Positions 2-9,596 of a DNA stretch of 11,059 nucleotides are shown piece by piece; position 1 is the stretch's first letter, and every line of letters starts with the position of its first letter. Under the pieces are notes generated by a model that ran no database searches, was not told the DNA's origin, and worked only from the letters and a program-made list of their open reading frames with translations. The stretch comes from a virus (lineage: Duplodnaviria > Heunggongvirae > Uroviricota > Caudoviricetes), in IMG/VR virus record IMGVR_UViG_2645727680_000003, one strand, 5' to 3'. The position numbers and the translations under genes are program-made.

Positions 2-1495
2 GCTCATCCGGAAGAAATCGACAGCATCGTGGCCATCACCCGCGATATTGCCATTCAGGAAGACCGCCACGAGCTGGGCAATGATATTACTCCGCGCTTT
101 AAGGCGGAGTATGTCGACGGCTCAAAAGGCACACCAACCAGCTATATCGCGACCTACATCGGAAAGAACCTGGACAGCCGCGCCGTGGATGGCATCGACC
201 CGAAAACGGGCAAGCCACGCGTTGACCACGAAACCGGAAAATCAATGGTCGAGAGTGTGGAGCGCGCCATCGGCTGGGCGCGCCTTCATCGGGTCCGCCA
301 GTTCCAGTTCTTTGGCATCCCCTCCCGTCAGGTGTGGCGTGAACTGCGCCGCCTTGCCAGCCAGATGGCACGCAACCCGGAAGGCCCGCAACGACTGAAA
401 GATGACGCAATGGATGCGGTACTCGCTGCCGCCGATGCCGGGTGTTTTGCCACCTACATTGAAAAACAGGGCGGCGTACTTGTTCCACGCAAAGACTACC
501 TGATTCGCACCGCCTACGACCTCGCAGATGAGCTGAATGATTACGGCGAACAGAGCGTACAGATTTACGGGATCTGGTCACCACTCATCGGGGAATCCTC
601 CCGTGTGTGCACGCATCCGGATAACTGGAAACTGGTAAGACGTAAACCGGAAACGGAAGACAGCGCCCGCGAAAATGGTTTTGACCTTCAGGGCGGCCCT
701 GCCGCCCCTTGGACTCGTGGCAATAACTGTCCCCGTGTACAGGAAACGGACAACAACGGGACAGAACAGCCGGAAGAACGGCCAGCACCGTGGCCGCAGC
801 TCCCTGACGGCGTTGAAGTGAACGAATGGATGCGCTCACTGAAACGGCACGAACGCCGGGCGCTGATGCGTTCGCTTCGTGACAAACAGGCAAAAAACAG
901 CAGTGATGAAATGCAGAGCTGGACACAGAGCCGCAAACAGCAGCGGCCTTTGCCTGATAACCACGAATTACTCGCTAAAGAATGGCGGGAATCTGCCGAA
1001 TCTCTCGGCCTGCATATCGGTGAACAGCAGATGCAGCACCTGTTACGGGGCGGCAGCCTGTACGTTGACGGCAGCATCATTGCACCGCAGGGATTTGAAA
1101 TTGTACGCAAACCGGATACCCGCCCGGACAGCCGAATCACGCAGCTCTGGCAGCGCCTGAGCCGTAACCACGGCGTAAGCAGCACGGAGATCCGCCATAA
1201 CCCGGTCGCCAGCTATCTGGAACAGCTGGGGGCATCAGACCCCGAAGCCGCCGCACGCCTGGCATCCACACTTCAGCAAGACCAGAACACCATGAAAACA
1301 CCCGTTACCGTGCTTTCTGACATGCTGCGCGCCATCCGCGACGCAGAGCACGCACAGAGAATCAGTGAAACCACTGAACGCGCCCGCCGCAAAGCAGACC
1401 TGCTGCGGGGTGGCCTGACCAGTGGAAACAAAAAACAGACAGAAACGGGATTCACAAATCCCGTAAATGAGCAAAAAACGCGCCGCGATATATGA
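2..1495 (+). CDS. Replication initiation protein, rolling-circle endonuclease (P2 gpA-like), 5'-partial; C-terminal ~250 aa is a Q/R-rich extension
   Basis: Reading frame is open from base 2 to the TGA at 1493-1495, so the gene starts upstream of the window. Contains SYIATYIGKNLD, a Y-x-x-x-Y-x-x-K motif like the paired catalytic tyrosines of P2 gpA-type initiators. Position directly upstream of the cargo/cos region matches P2 synteny. Family assignment is from recollection, not a search. Confidence 0.6.
   Translation, partial: AHPEEIDSIVAITRDIAIQEDRHELGNDITPRFKAEYVDGSKGTPTSYIATYIGKNLDSRAVDGIDPKTGKPRVDHETGKSMVESVERAIGWARLHRVRQFQFFGIPSRQVWRELRRLASQMARNPEGPQRLKDDAMDAVLAAADAGCFATYIEKQGGVLVPRKDYLIRTAYDLADELNDYGEQSVQIYGIWSPLIGESSRVCTHPDNWKLVRRKPETEDSARENGFDLQGGPAAPWTRGNNCPRVQETDNNGTEQPEERPAPWPQLPDGVEVNEWMRSLKRHERRALMRSLRDKQAKNSSDEMQSWTQSRKQQRPLPDNHELLAKEWRESAESLGLHIGEQQMQHLLRGGSLYVDGSIIAPQGFEIVRKPDTRPDSRITQLWQRLSRNHGVSSTEIRHNPVASYLEQLGASDPEAAARLASTLQQDQNTMKTPVTVLSDMLRAIRDAEHAQRISETTERARRKADLLRGGLTSGNKKQTETGFTNPVNEQKTRRDI
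1445..1464. promoter_or_regulatory. Perfect 8-bp inverted repeat ACGGGATT-N4-AATCCCGT (copy 1), inside the 3' end of the replication gene; candidate ParR operator/centromere half
   Basis: Read directly: ACGGGATT 1445-1452, spacer CACA, AATCCCGT 1457-1464. A second near-identical copy lies 73 bp downstream. Confidence 0.4.
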
Positions 1496-1517
1496 AGCGC
1501 GCATAAAACAGGCAAAA

Positions 1518-1537
1518 ACGGGATTTCAGAATCCCGT
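1518..1537. promoter_or_regulatory. Perfect 8-bp inverted repeat ACGGGATT-N4-AATCCCGT (copy 2), 35 bp upstream of the parM-like start; candidate operator/parC-like site
   Basis: Read directly: ACGGGATT 1518-1525, spacer TCAG, AATCCCGT 1530-1537. Flanks AAACGGGATT / AATCCCGTAAA are shared with copy 1. AT-rich TTAATTAAT follows at 1544-1552, a possible -10 region. Confidence 0.4.
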
Positions 1538-1571
1538 AAACGATTAATTAATCAACATAAGGAAAAGCGAC

Positions 1572-2490
1572 ATGAAAATTTGTATCGATGACGGCTCCAC
1601 CAACATCAAGCTGGCATGGACTGAGAACGGCGAACGCCGCAACGCCATCAGCCCGAACAGCTTCAAGTCGGAATGGTCTGCGCCGTTCGGTGGCACGCAG
1701 CCCGCGAACTACATGCTTGATGGCGTGCGCTATGGTTTTGATCCGGTCAGCGATCGCTTTGTCCAGACGACCGACACGCAATACCAGTACAGCGATGTGA
1801 ATGTCATTGCCATTCATCACGCGCTGGTCAAATCAGGCATCACACCACAGGAAGTGGATGTGGTTGTCACCCTGCCACTGAGCGAATATTTCGACACAAA
1901 CGCACAGCCGGACATGGCCAACATCAACCGCAAAAAAGCAAACGTCATGCGCCCGGTGGCGTACCAGAACGGAAAAGCATTCACTATCCGTAACGTACGG
2001 GTTATGCCTGAATCCATTCCGGCTGGTTTTAAAGCACTGGCTGACATGAGTCCGTTTGAATCCCTGCTGATTGTGGATTTAGGCGGAACCACGCTGGATG
2101 TGGCAAAGGTTCAGGGACAACTGGCAGGTATCAGCCAGGTGTTTTGCGATCCACACGTAGGCGTTTCCCTGATGGCCGATGCCGTACTGTCGGTGATGGC
2201 CACTAACGGTATGCGTACCAGTCACCACATCGCCAATACCATTATCGAACATCGCCATAATGAAGCCTGGCTGCGCCAGCACATCCACAATGACGCGCAT
2301 TACGACAGCCTGATGGCGGTTATTCGTGAAAAGGAAGAAACACTGAAACAACGCGTGATCCGCGCGCTGGCGGGNNNNNNNNNNNNNNNNNNNNNNNNNN
2401 GAAGCCTGCGGAGTTAATGCGACTTTCATCGCGGACGGGGTGCCACAGTTTGCTCTGGTTAATGGGCTGTACGCAATGGACAAGGAGTAA
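1572..2490 (+). CDS. parM: ParM/StbA-like actin-family plasmid segregation ATPase; interrupted by an N-run at 2375-2400
   Basis: N-terminus MKICIDDGSTNIKLAW..ISPNSFK..QYSDVNVIAIHHAL..VMPESIPAG..LLIVDLGGTTLD matches plasmid R1 ParM (MLVFIDDGSTNIKLQW..ISPNSFK..QYSDVNVVAVHHAL..VMPESIPAG..LLIIDLGGTTLD) as I remember it. RBS AAGGA 1559-1563, ATG 1572. After the gap the frame starting at 2401 reads EACGVNATFIADGVPQFALVNGLYAMDKE and stops at TAA 2488-2490, resembling the ParM C-terminus DLVNGMYLIGN. The ORF track's stop at 2417 is an artefact of reading through the Ns. Confidence 0.85.
2375..2400. other. Run of 26 N (assembly gap or masked bases) inside the parM-like gene
   Basis: Read directly from the sequence. 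Confidence 0.97.
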
Positions 2491-2494
2491 ACCA

Positions 2495-2806
2495 ATGACG
2501 ACACCAACCAGACGGATAAGTTTCTATCTGAAGCCCGCCGCCGTCAAGAACGAAGGCGAAGCATGCGCCTGGCTGGACAGCCTTACACCAGAAGCCCGCA
2601 AAAGTGGTCAACGTGTGGCTTTTCTGGCCGGACTGGCACTTATGAAAATTAATCCGGCAGAGGCTTACCGACTGGCTGCATGGGCTGACGATGAAGCGTT
2701 ATCCCTGACACAAACCAGGACAGAACGCCCCGTGTCACAGCCAGCACCAACCGCACAGATAACCAGTCAGATGGCCGGAAATATCCGGGCGTTATTTCCT
2801 GAATAA
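2495..2806 (+). CDS. parR: ParR/StbB-like DNA-binding adaptor (small ribbon-helix-helix-type partition protein)
   Basis: MTTPTRRISFYLKP...LDSLTPEARKSGQRVAFLAGLAL...NIRALFPE parallels R1 ParR (..RRTIAFKLNP...LDSIPQGERSRLNRAALTAGLAL...ILRSLFP) as I remember it. RBS AAGGAG 2482-2487, ATG 2495, overlapping the parM stop, which implies translational coupling. The upstream extension to 2417 in the ORF track has no RBS and overlaps the parM 3' end. Confidence 0.75.
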   Translation: MTTPTRRISFYLKPAAVKNEGEACAWLDSLTPEARKSGQRVAFLAGLALMKINPAEAYRLAAWADDEALSLTQTRTERPVSQPAPTAQITSQMAGNIRALFPE

Positions 2807-2814
2807 CACAACGT

Positions 2815-2832
2815 CAGGGCGGGTTCGCCCTG
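2815..2832. other. Hairpin CAGGGCG-GGTT-CGCCCTG immediately downstream of parR-like; shares the CAGGGCG...CGCCCTGCT arms with the hairpin at 3408-3433
   Basis: Read directly: 7-bp stem, 4-nt loop, no T-run after it. Confidence 0.5.
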
Positions 2833-2869
2833 CTCTCCACCTCAGAACATAAACAAGGAGAACGACATA

Positions 2870-3394
2870 ATGAGCGAAATCAACTATCAGGCATTACGTG
2901 AGGCGGCACAAAACTATCAATCGACGCTGGCGTGGTATGAGGCCACCACGGATAACCCAAATGCTGAGCAGGATTGTAGCGAAGCAGTGGCGGCGTTTAA
3001 GCGTCAAATCCGTCATCAGGAAATGGACATTATCGCCGAGCTGCTGGAAGAGCTGGAAACCAAAGACAACAGGATCGCTGAACTGGAAAAAATCGCCACT
3101 GAGCATGCACTGAAATTCCAGAAAGCACAGGACGCATTAAAGTATGCCGCTTTGCTGCATAGCCGAACGGCGCAACAAACCAATAATTTTGCAGTATTGC
3201 TTCCGGACATAAGCGAATATTTCATTAATAACGTATTTCAGCCCTTGCGATACGAGCGGGATGTTGAAAGAGCCATCATAAAGGCTGGCGGAAAAGCATT
3301 GTGGCAGGAGAAGCACGAGGAAAGAACGCATCAGCTAAGTGATGTAAATAGTGGATGGTTATGCCCACTGACAGAAGGTAAAAAGAACACCTGA
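2870..3394 (+). CDS. Hypothetical 174-aa protein with a central coiled-coil (EELETKDNRIAELEKIATEHALKFQKAQDALKY); N-terminus YQALREAA loosely recalls ead/Ea22-like prophage proteins (tentative)
   Basis: Clean ORF with RBS AAGGAG 2855-2860 and ATG 2870. Heptad-like charged/hydrophobic pattern in the middle. The 3' half is visibly AT-richer than neighbouring genes. No confident family assignment. Confidence 0.6.
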   Translation: MSEINYQALREAAQNYQSTLAWYEATTDNPNAEQDCSEAVAAFKRQIRHQEMDIIAELLEELETKDNRIAELEKIATEHALKFQKAQDALKYAALLHSRTAQQTNNFAVLLPDISEYFINNVFQPLRYERDVERAIIKAGGKALWQEKHEERTHQLSDVNSGWLCPLTEGKKNT

Positions 3395-3407
3395 TTTCCT
3401 CTCAAAC

Positions 3408-3433
3408 CAGGGCGATAATCGCGCATCGCCCTG
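3408..3433. other. Hairpin CAGGGCGAT-N8-ATCGCCCTG, 14 bp downstream of the orf174 stop
   Basis: Read directly: 9-bp perfect stem, 8-nt loop. Same arm motif as the hairpin at 2815-2832. Not followed directly by a T-run. Confidence 0.5.
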
Positions 3434-3434
3434 C

Positions 3435-3461
3435 TGCACAATAGTGCACAAATTTGCACAA
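3435..3461. repeat. Three direct TGCACAA repeats phased at exactly 10 bp, followed by T7 (3462-3468); a fourth TGCACAA at 3527-3533
   Basis: Read directly: TGCACAA at 3435-3441, 3445-3451 and 3455-3461. Helical-turn phasing suggests a protein-binding array. Confidence 0.6.
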
Positions 3462-3504
3462 TTTTTTTGAACGACTTTTTGCCCTTCCGGCCCCCGTGGC
3501 GGCT

Positions 3505-3523
3505 GGATCCGTCAAGGATCCGT
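3505..3523. repeat. Tandem GGATCCGT repeats 11 bp apart, adjacent to the TGCATGCA palindrome
   Basis: Read directly: GGATCCGT at 3505-3512 and 3516-3523. Confidence 0.5.
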
Positions 3524-3834
3524 GCATGCACAAAAAAACGCGCTTTTTCTGCGCGCAGGTGACGGGGGAACAGCCCGCGTTTCAGGGGGTAAATAGCGTT
3601 CCCTTAACAATGTCGCAGCGACACGACAGAATGGCCGTATTTCTCACGCTGAGCGTGAAAAATACGTGAGGGATTCTGATTTGATGGGGTGAAAGGTAAG
3701 GCCGTCAAAATCGCACTGAGGCGGCGAGAACATGCAGTCAACGCGGTGGGATTGCGTAAGAGTCTGACCGTCGATGGTGGCGATAAATTGGAAGGCGTCG
3801 TGAAATTATCTGACTGATACAGGAGCTGGAGAGT

Positions 3835-3859
3835 CGGGGCATAAATTTTTTATGCCCCG
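3835..3859. other. Palindromic hairpin CGGGGCATA-AATTTTT-TATGCCCCG, 27 bp beyond the 3' end of portal gene Q; possible terminator or structural element at the end of the leftward P-Q operon
   Basis: Read directly: 9-bp stem, 7-nt loop. No U-run follows on either strand, so it is not a canonical intrinsic terminator. Confidence 0.3.
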
Positions 3860-3885
3860 GCGAAGCAGCAGACAAGCGAAGCGCG

Positions 3886-4932
3886 TCAGGATGTGGGCTG
3901 GGTGTCTAACAGTGCGTAAGGGTTAAAACGGATAACCTCTTCGCCAAGCCAGTCATTGATGTGCTTCATGGCCTCCATGACTGGCATCAGCTCGTTAATT
4001 GCGTAAACCCGCGCGGCCTTCTCCACATCACCAAACGCACTTTTTTCACCCGGCATCGCCCCCATCAGTTGCGGCGGAACGCGGTGCGCAGCCAGCACAT
4101 CATCACGGGATGCCGCCTTAACATTCATGAATTCATCCTTTGCGGTGATCTGCTGGAACGGCAAAATTTGCACCCCCTCTTTGCCCCCGTTGGGCGCATG
4201 AATGAGCACGTTTTTAAACGCACCACCACCACGTGCCCCCTGTAACGTTTCTTTCAGGGAGTCCATGCTTTCGCGGTTTACCTGCGCTGCACCGATGTAG
4301 ATGATGCACCCGGCGTGGGATCCGTTGTCGTAATACAGTTTTCTGAACATGTCCGCCGAATGAGACAGGCTGGCCGAGAGTAATGCGCCGAGATATTCCG
4401 GCATGCCGTAGATTTCCTGGTTAATATCTGGATTCATCAGGTGGCACACTTTGCCAGGGCGAAACTGAAACGCGTCCTTACCATCCTGCACATACCACCA
4501 TGATTCAAGATCGCTTCCGCGTCGCATGTATTTCGCCAGGGCGTGCCGTAATTTAAGCGGTTCGCCGAGCATATTGCTTCGAAGCTCAAGGAATGCGTTA
4601 CCGAACACAAACCAGTCCAGCGCCAGCGCCGAGAAATCCTGCCGGGAAAGCAGCGGGTGTGGAATATAGCAACCGAGCAATACATTGCGCTTAAAGTAAA
4701 GCGCAGACTGATGCCAGGACGTTTGCCGGGCAGCTCTTGCCAGACCGTACCAGTCCACCGGGGTTTCATACCACCGCCCGTTATCAGCACAGTACATATT
4801 GTCCAGCAGGTCATGCCCGGTCAGGCGATAAGGACCATCAAATGTGAATGCACTGAGCGATGATTCTTTCCTGAGCGCATCAGCGAGATCAATGCGTGAA
4901 CTCATGCGCACTTTTTTATTTTTTCTGCTCAT
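3886..4932 (-). CDS. Q: Portal protein (P2 gpQ-like)
   Basis: 348-aa ORF, similar in size to P2 gpQ and in the expected place: downstream of and coupled to the large terminase gene (ATGA overlap at 4930-4934), adjacent to the predicted cos region. Family assignment by synteny and recollection. Confidence 0.8.
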   Translation of the reverse strand: MSRKNKKVRMSSRIDLADALRKESSLSAFTFDGPYRLTGHDLLDNMYCADNGRWYETPVDWYGLARAARQTSWHQSALYFKRNVLLGCYIPHPLLSRQDFSALALDWFVFGNAFLELRSNMLGEPLKLRHALAKYMRRGSDLESWWYVQDGKDAFQFRPGKVCHLMNPDINQEIYGMPEYLGALLSASLSHSADMFRKLYYDNGSHAGCIIYIGAAQVNRESMDSLKETLQGARGGGAFKNVLIHAPNGGKEGVQILPFQQITAKDEFMNVKAASRDDVLAAHRVPPQLMGAMPGEKSAFGDVEKAARVYAINELMPVMEAMKHINDWLGEEVIRFNPYALLDTQPTS

Positions 4933-6683
4933 CAGAACTCCATAACCGTGAAACGCTCGTTTTCTCCTTCGCCGCCAATTGGTTCGTTAATGACAGCAAG
5001 CATGGTTGCCCACGCAAGGTCGCCGTGGCTGATCCCCCTCGCGCGGTCCGTTTCGTAAGTGATAAAGCCGCCCGGTGTTTTCACCTTACGCACGGCGTTA
5101 AAGGCCGCGACCAGCTCGCGTTCGGCGCGATCGTATTCCCACCGCCCGGCACGCATTATTTGCAGCATTTTCAGTACCAGCGACCGTTTTGATGACAGCG
5201 TGAAGGTGTACGGAATAGCGGCAGGGAAAAACCGTTTCACTATCTGATAAACAGCCTCCCCGTTCCCGCCCGTCACATCAATGCCGATGTGTTCCACGTT
5301 GTAGCGACACGTGAACTCTTCAATGACTCTGGCCTGTTCTTCAAACTCCAGCCCCTGAACGCGTCGCGTCTCCACCGTTCGAAAACGGCCACCAGGAACA
5401 GACGGAGGAACCACCACGGACACAGCGCCGCTGTCGCCGTTGCCACTGCTGCCGTTTGCGTCATACCCAATCCATACCGGACGATTCCCCATCGGGCGGG
5501 GAGCAAAAGGTTTCCAGTCTTTCCAGTCGTCGTATCCGTCAACACCGCAGCCAATCAGGATATTCAGGTTAAATGCCGATTCCCCTTCGCGGACAAACTC
5601 ACACATATAGAGATTGAGGAACTCGTCTTCGGTGTTTTCATCACGAATTTCGTCGATATCGGTGTGTTTCCAGCCGTGATTAACCACATCTTCCAGCGTG
5701 ACAATTTGCCGCCACGTCCGGTCAGGGCAGATAAGCCCGTTATGCAGCGTTTTCCAGTCCACAGAAAAACGCTGGCGTTTATGCGTGGCCTTTTTCTCGT
5801 TCCAGCGGTCGCCGTTCCAGTAGGCGTATGCCTCGTGCGTTTCGGTGGATGGCGTGGAGAAGTAGGTGCGCCGCCGTCCGCTGAGGGTTGCCATAGCGCC
5901 AGCCACCTTGCGCAGTTCAGCAAAGCGACTGACCCAGAAAAATTCATCAAAATAAAAATTGCCCGTATAGGACTGTGCCGACGCAGCAGAAGTGCCGAGA
6001 AAATGCAGCTCTGCGCCGTTGGAGAGGATGATTTTATCGCCCCCTTTCAACTCCACATCAACTTCAGCCGCGGCCTTCTGAATAATGCTTTTAAACTGGA
6101 ACGCCTGACGACGCGACGCAGACAAAAAAATCTGGTTACGCTGGTAAGGTTGCGCCACATCGTCACGCAGCGCCATCAGCAGCGCTTCCTGTGCAAAATA
6201 CCAGGTCGCCCCAATCTGTCGGGATTTCAGGATCATCCTGTTACGTATCCCTGCTTCCCTGCAAAGGGTCAGGGAGTCAAACCAGCCCCGCTGATGCCAC
6301 TCCAGCCTGCTGATGATTTTTTCCCGCAGTGCGGCAATCTGTTCCGGCGTGAAATGATTTTTAAGCTTTTTCGCCCGGCCTTTCTTTCCTGTGGCCGTCG
6401 CATCCGGCTGGCCATCATGCAGTTTTTTAAGCTGCCGGGTCAGCAGGTCTATTTCCTTGAAGTCACCACCTGTTTTATTCTGTTTTTCAGTGAGCTGGAT
6501 GAGGCGCGCATCGATGGACTGCGTGACACGCTGCACGGGTGGCGTTTCATCCCACTGGTCGCGTTTTTTCCACGCATAAATCGTGTTCGGGTTTATTCCC
6601 ATCAGACGTGATATTTCTGCGGGCGGATAACCCTGCCAGTAAAGTTGCCGCGCACGCTGGCGCACAAAAGCGTCCTGAATCAT
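4932..6683 (-). CDS. P: Terminase large (ATPase) subunit (P2 gpP-like)
   Basis: 583-aa ORF, similar in size to P2 gpP. Divergent from the O-N-M-L block, as in P2. RBS GGGGGAG upstream of the ATG at 6683 on the minus strand. Confidence 0.85.
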   Translation of the reverse strand: MIQDAFVRQRARQLYWQGYPPAEISRLMGINPNTIYAWKKRDQWDETPPVQRVTQSIDARLIQLTEKQNKTGGDFKEIDLLTRQLKKLHDGQPDATATGKKGRAKKLKNHFTPEQIAALREKIISRLEWHQRGWFDSLTLCREAGIRNRMILKSRQIGATWYFAQEALLMALRDDVAQPYQRNQIFLSASRRQAFQFKSIIQKAAAEVDVELKGGDKIILSNGAELHFLGTSAASAQSYTGNFYFDEFFWVSRFAELRKVAGAMATLSGRRRTYFSTPSTETHEAYAYWNGDRWNEKKATHKRQRFSVDWKTLHNGLICPDRTWRQIVTLEDVVNHGWKHTDIDEIRDENTEDEFLNLYMCEFVREGESAFNLNILIGCGVDGYDDWKDWKPFAPRPMGNRPVWIGYDANGSSGNGDSGAVSVVVPPSVPGGRFRTVETRRVQGLEFEEQARVIEEFTCRYNVEHIGIDVTGGNGEAVYQIVKRFFPAAIPYTFTLSSKRSLVLKMLQIMRAGRWEYDRAERELVAAFNAVRKVKTPGGFITYETDRARGISHGDLAWATMLAVINEPIGGEGENERFTVMEF

Positions 6684-8795: not shown

Positions 8796-9596
8796 ATGAT
8801 TACTCCTGCACAGCAACACTGGCAGAACGTGATGGCACAGCGCGCAGGCCGGGCGAATGAAGGCGTGGACCACGCCGCGCGTACCGCGCATGAAGAGGTG
8901 CTGTATCGTCTGCGTCTGGCACAGGCCCGACTTAAGGGCGTACAGGCCAGAAGCGCGAAAGCCGCCATCAAAAAAGAGTTATTGCCGGACTTTTCCGGCT
9001 GGATTGAGGGAACGCTGGAGGCTGACGGCGGGCAGCAGGATGAAGTGATTGCCACGCTGATGGTGTGGGCGATTGACTGCGGCGATCTTCCGCTGGCGCT
9101 GCGTATTGGTGCATATGTGGTCCGTCACAACCTCATCATGCCGGATAACTTTGGACGTACTGCTGCCACGGTACTGACCGAAGAAATCTGCAACCCGGTA
9201 CTGACGCAGGCCGGGACGGATGCCGACGCGGATTTATCCGCCTTTATCGAACCACTGGACACACTTTGGGAAATTGTTGCCAACCAGGACATGCCGGACG
9301 AAGTGCGCGCCAAATTATGCAAGGCGTGTGCCTTTGCCCGTCGTGGCCTGACCGATGCAGACAGCATGGCCTCATCACTGAAGCTGCTGCGCGAAGCGAT
9401 GCACCTGAACCCGAACTCAGGTGTGAAACGCGAGATTGCAACCCTTTCCCGCGCCCTGAAAAAAGCCGATTCCGCAGCCGCACCAGAAGACGCCAGCACA
9501 CCGCAGGCGCAGGACGAAAGCAGCAAAAGTAAAAAGACAACGCGGAAGCCTGCAACACGAAAAACCACCGCGACGCAGAAGGCGAAGCGCGGTTAA
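8796..9596 (+). CDS. M: Terminase small (endonuclease) subunit (P2 gpM-like)
   Basis: MITPAQQHW...KKELLP...ADMPDEVRAKL...GVKREI parallels P2 gpM (MTSPAQRHM...KRELLP...ADMPDEVRAKL...GVKKEI) as I remember it. Basic, K/R/T-rich C-terminal tail. RBS GGAGAG 8785-8790. Confidence 0.85.
   Translation: MITPAQQHWQNVMAQRAGRANEGVDHAARTAHEEVLYRLRLAQARLKGVQARSAKAAIKKELLPDFSGWIEGTLEADGGQQDEVIATLMVWAIDCGDLPLALRIGAYVVRHNLIMPDNFGRTAATVLTEEICNPVLTQAGTDADADLSAFIEPLDTLWEIVANQDMPDEVRAKLCKACAFARRGLTDADSMASSLKLLREAMHLNPNSGVKREIATLSRALKKADSAAAPEDASTPQAQDESSKSKKTTRKPATRKTTATQKAKRG

Follow-up and report, generated by a model that had tools for sequence, protein, structure and literature searches.

A phased array of three TGCACAA heptamers, lying upstream of a predicted cohesive-end sequence in the phage DNA studied here, very likely forms the distal part of the cos packaging signal, in which the heptamers would act as terminase recognition sites with a cosB-like role. 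The DNA (11,059 nt, hereafter ‘the window’) comes, as judged from its sequence, from a P2-family phage that is a member of the P88-like group (Xuanwuvirus), whose phages were the nearest to it in a database search. A first-pass annotation of the window had named terminase recognition near cos among the possible functions of the heptamers, and comparison strongly supports this, the position of the array being conserved in P2, 186, P4, P88-like phages and a satellite. It had also placed the array next to the predicted cos; the connection with cos holds, but ‘next to’ understates it, in that the array forms part of the cos region. A function of this kind is the one expected at such a position.

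The array and core (3435–3576) sit between the gpA/cargo hotspot and the 3′ end of the portal gene Q (Table 1). Both P2 and 186 have the same layout, with cos between gpA-side cargo and Q, and the arrangement matches the described location of P2-family cos beside a cargo hotspot (Rousset et al., 2022, PMC9122126). The cargo genes of the window are all transcribed towards cos.

Table 1. Coordinates of genes and sequence features in the window (nt).
Feature	Position	Strand	Remarks
gpA replication protein, C-terminus	29–1495		
Two 42-nt direct repeats	1429–1543		Upstream of the parM start (1572); 81% identical, 73 bp apart
20-bp palindrome ACGGGATTnnnnAATCCCGT	1445–1464 and 1518–1537		One per 42-nt repeat
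Cargo region	1572–3394		
ParM	1572–2417		
ParR, StbB-type	2417–2806		
Ead/Ea22-like protein (orf174)	2870–3394		
Non-coding stretch	Between the Ead/Ea22-like gene and portal Q		490 bp
Distal heptamer 1, TGCACAA	3435–3441	+	Outer edge of the conserved cos region
Distal heptamer 2, TGCACAA	3445–3451	+	Exact match
Distal heptamer 3, TGCACAA	3455–3461	+	Exact match
T7 tract	3462–3468	+	Directly 3′ of heptamer 3
Spacer	3469–3526	.	58 bp; constant length, variable sequence
GGATCCGT pair	3503–3510 and 3515–3522		In spacer; lineage-specific; GGATCC palindromic
Proximal heptamer TGCACAA (3527–3533) running into A7 (3532–3538)	3527–3538	+	
Short GC-rich inverted repeat, CGCGC / 7 nt / GCGCG	3539–3555	.	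Between proximal heptamer and cohesive-end sequence
Predicted cohesive-end 19-mer (cosN equivalent), GGTGACGGGGGAACAGCCC	3558–3576	+	
Portal Q	3886–4932	-	
gpP, large terminase	4932–6683	-	Pfam Terminase_5, HTH_23, Terminase_6N, Terminase_6C
Scaffold O, capsid N			Between the gpP and gpM genes in gene order
gpM, small terminase	8796–9596	+	Pfam PF05944; 36% identical to P2 gpM
L			Last gene in the listed order, after gpM

An exact search of the whole window, on both strands, found TGCACAA at four places and nowhere else. This confirmed the description in the first-pass annotation of three heptamers at 10-bp spacing (starting at 3435, 3445 and 3455) that run directly into a T7 tract, of a fourth copy about 70 bp further on (at 3527, its start 72 bp from that of the third) and of tandem repeats near that fourth copy (GGATCCGT, present twice). 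Four copies alone are not an unusual count, as at least four were found in 72 of 200 shuffles. It is the clustering and phasing of the heptamers that are unusual: the array is the one case in the window of an exact 7-mer occurring three times at spacings of 9–12 bp, and any such 7-mer was seen in five of 1000 dinucleotide shuffles.

The T7 tract probably bends the DNA intrinsically or belongs to the recognition site. A tract of T5–T8 is kept across the lineages with the TGCACAA motif, and comparison with P2 and 186 showed no conserved T run after their arrays; in the spacer region of other lineages there is a GC-rich palindrome, such as GCCAGnnCTGGCG. As a separate observation on the spacer, the GGATCCGT pair (3503–3522) puts two GATC (Dam) sites into it, and in 79 P2-like cos arms GATC shows an enrichment of about 1.8-fold (1.18 per 180 nt vs 0.64 expected) and occurs at lineage-specific fixed positions, at -96/-85 and at -42/-41 from the cos core.

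A coding explanation of the region was considered and rejected: the two open reading frames that overlap it (3454–3669 on the plus strand and 3331–3531 on the minus strand) have no Pfam match and cross the cos core, and conservation in the alignment takes the form of islands at the repeats and is not codon-like. A consensus scan found no sigma-70-like promoter at the array. Elsewhere in this part of the genome, a perfect hairpin with an 11-bp stem (3835–3859) lies just past the portal gene stop and probably corresponds to the tQ terminator of P2. The sole match in an Rfam scan of 3000–4200, to gyrA RNA at 3827–3880, was sub-threshold (22 bits vs a gathering score of 45) and is probably due to chance. 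A 15-bp inverted repeat at 3636–3666 (CGTATTTCTCACGCT / AGCGTGAAAAATACG, 93% complementary, 1-nt gap), some 60–90 bp past the predicted cohesive end, is also present in P88 and is not found in phiT5282H or in the satellite island described below.

The predicted cohesive-end 19-mer, GGTGACGGGGGAACAGCCC, begins 31 bp after the start of the fourth heptamer and agrees with the cohesive end of P2, GGCGAGGCGGGGAAAGCAC, in 13 of 19 positions (manual count) within the same flanking context. The conserved core lies on the right-end side of the cohesive end; read towards the 19-mer, that of the window runs TGCACAAAAAAAC, then CGCGCtttttctGCGCG, which is the short GC inverted repeat, and then the 19-mer; the P2 core runs TGCATTAAAAC, then CGCCCcgtgaaGGGCG, then its own 19-mer. 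The proximal heptamer with its A7 is thus the counterpart of TGCATTAAAAC, which is found in P2, 186 and P4, and the GC inverted repeat that of CGCCCcgtgaaGGGCG in P2. In 75 P88-like sequences the 19-mer is the least variable block, with one of its 19 columns varying, and the cohesive-end sequence is kept in the satellite island as well. The nick positions are predicted by similarity only, with an uncertainty of about 3 nt. In its location, its GC-rich 19-mer, its core of TGCAY, A run and GC inverted repeat, and its sharing with satellites, the region has the features of a P2-family cos, and on these resemblances we take it to be the packaging signal of the P2 family in a P88-type form, distinct in both motif and cohesive-end sequence. 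A single hint speaks against the predicted position of cos: the record of P88_4B11 (LR595891) starts at the equivalent of position 3480 of the window, between the array and the proximal heptamer; this start within the spacer may be an arbitrary linearisation.

Two database records show irregularities within the cos core. In that of the Yersinia phage vB_YenM_06.16-2, GGCGTGGCG is joined directly to TGCGCGC, without 10 nt (GGGATAGCAT) inside the cohesive-end sequence that are present in two of its relatives, and the gap probably arose in assembly, at the physical ends. The record of E. coli phage 500465-1 has 1 nt missing at the same place.

The first-pass annotation had suggested aligning related P2-like phages to see whether the heptamers are conserved relative to cos, and in that comparison they are. 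Counted from the first base of the annotated cohesive end, P2, 186 and P4 carry copies of TGCAT at -123/-124, -111, -101 and -29; counted from the cos-like 19-mer, the TGCACAA copies of the window lie at -123, -113, -103 and -31. Cos arms from 80 portal-gene loci in different bacterial species, together with a dozen phage records, yielded 77 non-identical arms, in which positions were measured from the copy nearest the cos core. The motif [TC]GCA[CT] stands at -72 from the proximal copy in 55 of the 77 arms (68 with a relaxed motif), at -82 in 56, and at -92 in 28, with the P2 type having its copy at -94/-95 instead, against a background of about 0.02 per position. Conservation is weaker at the first distal copy than at the second and third. 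These arms span Escherichia, Salmonella, Klebsiella, Serratia, Brenneria, Xenorhabdus, Photorhabdus, Morganella, Yersinia, Erwinia and Pantoea, and also include Aeromonas and Iodobacter; in most of them nothing else in the region can be aligned. On a finer scale, an alignment of the window with P88, phiT5282H, the satellite and a prophage of E. coli 23CRST028 has invariant heptamers, T run, proximal copy and cos core, and a spacer with few conserved columns that is 58 bp long in all five, with no indels. Within the P88-like population, where the sequences are very similar, the mean minor-allele fraction is 0.026 in the array vs 0.047 in the spacer. The sequence comparisons thus identify the array as a family-wide feature of P2-type cos sites.

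The array also marks an edge. In P88-like phages, similarity to the window starts at the first heptamer (3435), and the cargo upstream of it differs from phage to phage; at 63 of 82 P88-like loci the similarity begins at 3434/3435. Positions 3425–3600 of the window were found in 1148 of 5426 complete E. coli genomes, about a fifth, with most matches starting at query position 10–11. Since similarity starts at the first heptamer despite the varied cargo, the repeats belong to the conserved backbone and not to the cargo. Placing them within cos explains why the P88-like backbone begins where it does, and defines the outer limit of the cos-side cargo/defence hotspot.

Cargo junctions that fall exactly on the first heptamer would also fit if the array were a recombination site or anchor for cargo exchange at the hotspot, and not a packaging element. 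Cos directly borders the hotspots of P2 and P4, and recombination there has been speculated upon (Rousset et al., 2022, PMC9122126). However, no dedicated site of recombination is needed for junctions to fall where an essential element begins, the array keeps fixed distances both to the cohesive-end sequence and to the proximal copy, which indicates a function in cos cleavage, and no recombinase is consistently associated with the array; we consider an exchange site very improbable.

Three observations concern the genomes in which these sequences occur. All but one of the 1323 matches to 3425–3600 in E. coli are chromosomal. Yet the plasmid-partition pair ParM/ParR (StbA/StbB; 1572–2806) is carried by a P2-like phage, and P88 and P88_4B11 have it too, which is surprising in an integrating prophage. 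A contig labelled Vagococcus sp. WN89Y (NZ_JBQPOM010000071) has a portal gene 100% identical to that of the window and the same cos region; as Vagococcus is Gram-positive, this is probably contamination or a mislabelled assembly.

Satellites provide a further view of which sequences are retained. P4 has little in common with P2 apart from cos (PMC9122126, PMC9594776), and it carries the full TGCAT array. Among E. coli genomes we also identified a 12.7-kb island between gcd and hpt (NZ_CM132655), which encodes two integrases, an Icd-like protein, a toprim primase, an Ogr/Delta activator, a capsid protein and MazEF, and in which no terminase, portal or tail genes were found. Its capsid protein is a divergent P2-family major capsid protein of 423 aa, 35% identical to gpN and with an N-terminal extension. 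DNA similarity between island and window is confined to about 165 bp, from the first heptamer to some 20 bp past the cos core GGTGACGGGGGAACAGCAC, and includes three TGCACAA copies at 10-bp spacing; this cos region is present in at least 53 E. coli genomes. From its gene content and this similarity the island appears to be a satellite-like element that needs the terminase of a helper and has kept just the stretch from array to core.

Might the array and T7 tract serve mainly as an intrinsic terminator or insulator that keeps cargo transcription out of cos? TGCA is palindromic, so that heptamers 2 and 3 can form a hairpin (GUGCA..UGCAC) followed by U7, and a consensus scan reports a terminator-like site at 3444–3459 followed by the T run; the cargo genes all point to cos, and the T run is kept in TGCACAA lineages. 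Yet the hairpin has a stem of 5 bp and reaches only -6.1 kcal/mol, and stronger terminators come with the cargo just upstream, for example in P88 and phiT5282H, that of the window being a hairpin at 3408–3433 of -15.6 kcal/mol. Moreover, no T run accompanies the repeats of P2 and 186, and termination does not account for the first copy, for the fixed distance of 72 bp to the proximal copy or for the retention of the array in satellites. Termination could be a secondary function of the array, but as its main one we find it very unlikely.

The first-pass annotation had also raised the possibility of an operator for a cargo-encoded regulator. On this account the repeats would be a centromere (parC) or operator for the ParR/StbB-like cargo protein or for the Ead/Ea22-like orf174 protein. 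ParR centromeres are arrays of phased short repeats, as in parC of plasmid R1, a form that the array resembles, and ParM and the StbB-type ParR are encoded some 0.6–1.9 kb upstream of it. But the array is found beyond orf174, with about 1.9 kb between it and the start of parM, and stands in the same place without ParM/ParR in phiT5282H, in the 23CRST028 prophage and in the satellite island, as well as, in its TGCAT form, in P2, 186 and P4. The cargo beside it in phiT5282H is an AAA ATPase and an S8 peptidase, and P88-like phages with different cargo share similarity from the array onward. A better candidate for parC is found directly upstream of parM, where the direct repeats with their palindromes (1429–1543) are the likely parC or ParR operator. 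We therefore reject the operator for ParR or orf174, the array occurring without those genes and a separate palindromic pair preceding parM; the chance that it is correct seems to us negligible.

If the array is part of the packaging signal, the sequence of its repeats bears on the identity of the protein that reads them. Two motif types are apparent across the cos arms: TGCAC(A/G)A in the window, P88, phiT5282H and relatives in Klebsiella, Serratia, Brenneria and Xenorhabdus, and TGCAT(G/T)A in P2, 186, P4, Fels-2-like phages and phages of Yersinia, Erwinia and Pantoea. Within each genome the distal copies match the proximal one in type, and both types are found in phages of E. coli. Because the type is matched within a genome and differs between phages of one host, these sequences point to a phage-encoded reader and not to a host protein.

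This bears directly on whether a host architectural protein (IHF, Fis or H-NS) binds at the repeats, or whether they form a plain intrinsic bend that aids packaging while terminase does not read it. In favour are the need of lambda cosB for IHF, the helical phasing of the repeats and the T7 tract beside them. A search of 3420–3600 for the IHF consensus WATCAANNNNTTR, with one mismatch or fewer, found no match, however; P88-like phages with TGCACAA and P2 and 186 with TGCAT are all E. coli phages; and the agreement between distal and proximal copies within a genome fits a phage-specific reader. The suggestion in the first-pass annotation of a dedicated bending protein from the host thus found no support, and we hold host-protein sites or a plain bend to be unlikely, with a small chance of being right.

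Among phage proteins, we infer that terminase is the binder. The N-terminus of gpP, where Pfam assigns Terminase_5, also matches HTH_23 and HTH_28 (aa 6–63), and a single-sequence AF2 model of medium confidence shows a three-helix bundle there. A Foldseek search with the gpP(1–110) model returned nothing significant (best E-value 0.55), with several helix-turn-helix DNA-binding proteins near the top. The gpM model (AF2, 35-sequence alignment, pLDDT 82) is all-alpha and TPR-like with a disordered basic tail (230–266); although gpM is the classical candidate, the model has no helix-turn-helix or other recognisable DNA-binding fold, and its best structure matches include nothing resembling solved small terminases. 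Sequence searches of gpM and gpP against PDB chains gave nothing useful. From these models gpP is a candidate reader of the heptamers through its helix-turn-helix, with gpM a candidate as alternative or partner. The first-pass annotation had singled out the gpM-like protein as the binder, a choice that the predicted folds do not support. Such a division of domains, with a helix-turn-helix on the large gpP and a TPR-like small gpM, would be unusual. In 11 complete loci, both gpP and gpM differ between the motif classes; since motif class follows one deep phylogenetic split, this covariation is inseparable from shared descent.

We propose that a multimeric terminase of gpP and gpM would bind the three phased distal sites together with the proximal site, all four of which would lie roughly on one face of the DNA, with the 58-bp spacer bent or looped. 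The gpP nuclease would thereby be placed on the 19-nt cohesive-end sequence (3558–3576). P2 packages monomeric circles, and a role of the array at the initiation of packaging is therefore indistinguishable from one at its termination.

A 55-bp core has been assigned to the cos of P2 and P4 (Ziermann and Calendar, 1990, Gene 96:9, as cited in PMC9122126, PMC3931495 and PMC5694545). By our comparison such a core would hold the proximal copy and not the distal array. Flanks beyond the 55-bp P2/P4 core raise cosmid transduction more than 1000-fold, an effect for which no explanation was given (PMC9594776). We found no description of the phased repeats, or of the P88-type cos sequence, in the literature searched, to which the 1990 study of P2/P4 cos did not belong; its papers on P2/P4 hotspots and cosmids refer just to cos as such or to the 55-bp core. 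With the array, the P2-family packaging signal can be given a testable definition that reaches past the 55-bp core, and this bears on the design of P2/P4 cosmids and transducing particles. The two motif classes, along with a satellite of the TGCACAA class, suggest a simple specificity code for packaging between helper and satellite. A more sweeping proposal, which we offer tentatively and think rather doubtful as a whole, is that the phased TGCAY array, with copies 72, 82 and about 92–95 bp upstream of the proximal one, serves cos sites across the P2 family as a general and undescribed recognition module, that its reader is gpP, through the N-terminal helix-turn-helix, and not gpM, and that its class (TGCACAA vs TGCATNA) determines which satellites a given helper can package.

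Comparison with known systems brings out both what is shared and what is particular to this site. The parC of plasmid R1 likewise has phased short direct repeats, and the window does encode a ParM/ParR pair, but its array lies downstream of the operon, beyond another gene, and does not co-occur with parMR. In P1 pac, hexamer repeats flank the cleavage region and are under the control of Dam methylation. The window resembles it in that short repeats are clustered to both sides of a spacer close to where cleavage occurs, and in the GATC pair that this spacer holds; it differs in that the heptamers contain no GATC, the GATC positions are lineage-specific and cos is not a headful system.

The lambda cosB comprises the gpNu1 sites R3, R2 and R1 and the IHF site I1, beside cosN. 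Here too several short repeats lie on one side of the nicking site, with presumably bent DNA between and a function in positioning terminase. The R sites, however, are 16 bp, whereas the repeats of the window are 7 bp at one-turn spacing; lambda has an IHF site between its repeats, for which the window shows no WATCAANNNNTTR match in 3420–3600; and gpNu1 is a winged-helix protein, whereas gpM of the window is predicted to be TPR-like, with the helix-turn-helix on gpP.

In comparison with the cos sites of P2, 186 and P4, the window has TGCACAA repeats spaced by 10 + 10 bp instead of TGCAT(G/T)N spaced by 12–13 + 10 bp, a distance from proximal copy to core of 31 bp instead of 29 bp, a cohesive-end sequence that differs from that of P2 at six of 19 positions, and, unlike the P2-type cos, a T7 tract after the array. 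What they share is the same order of proximal TGCAY, A run, GC hairpin and cohesive end, three distal TGCAY copies at nearly identical distances, and a GC-rich 19-mer similar to the P2 end.
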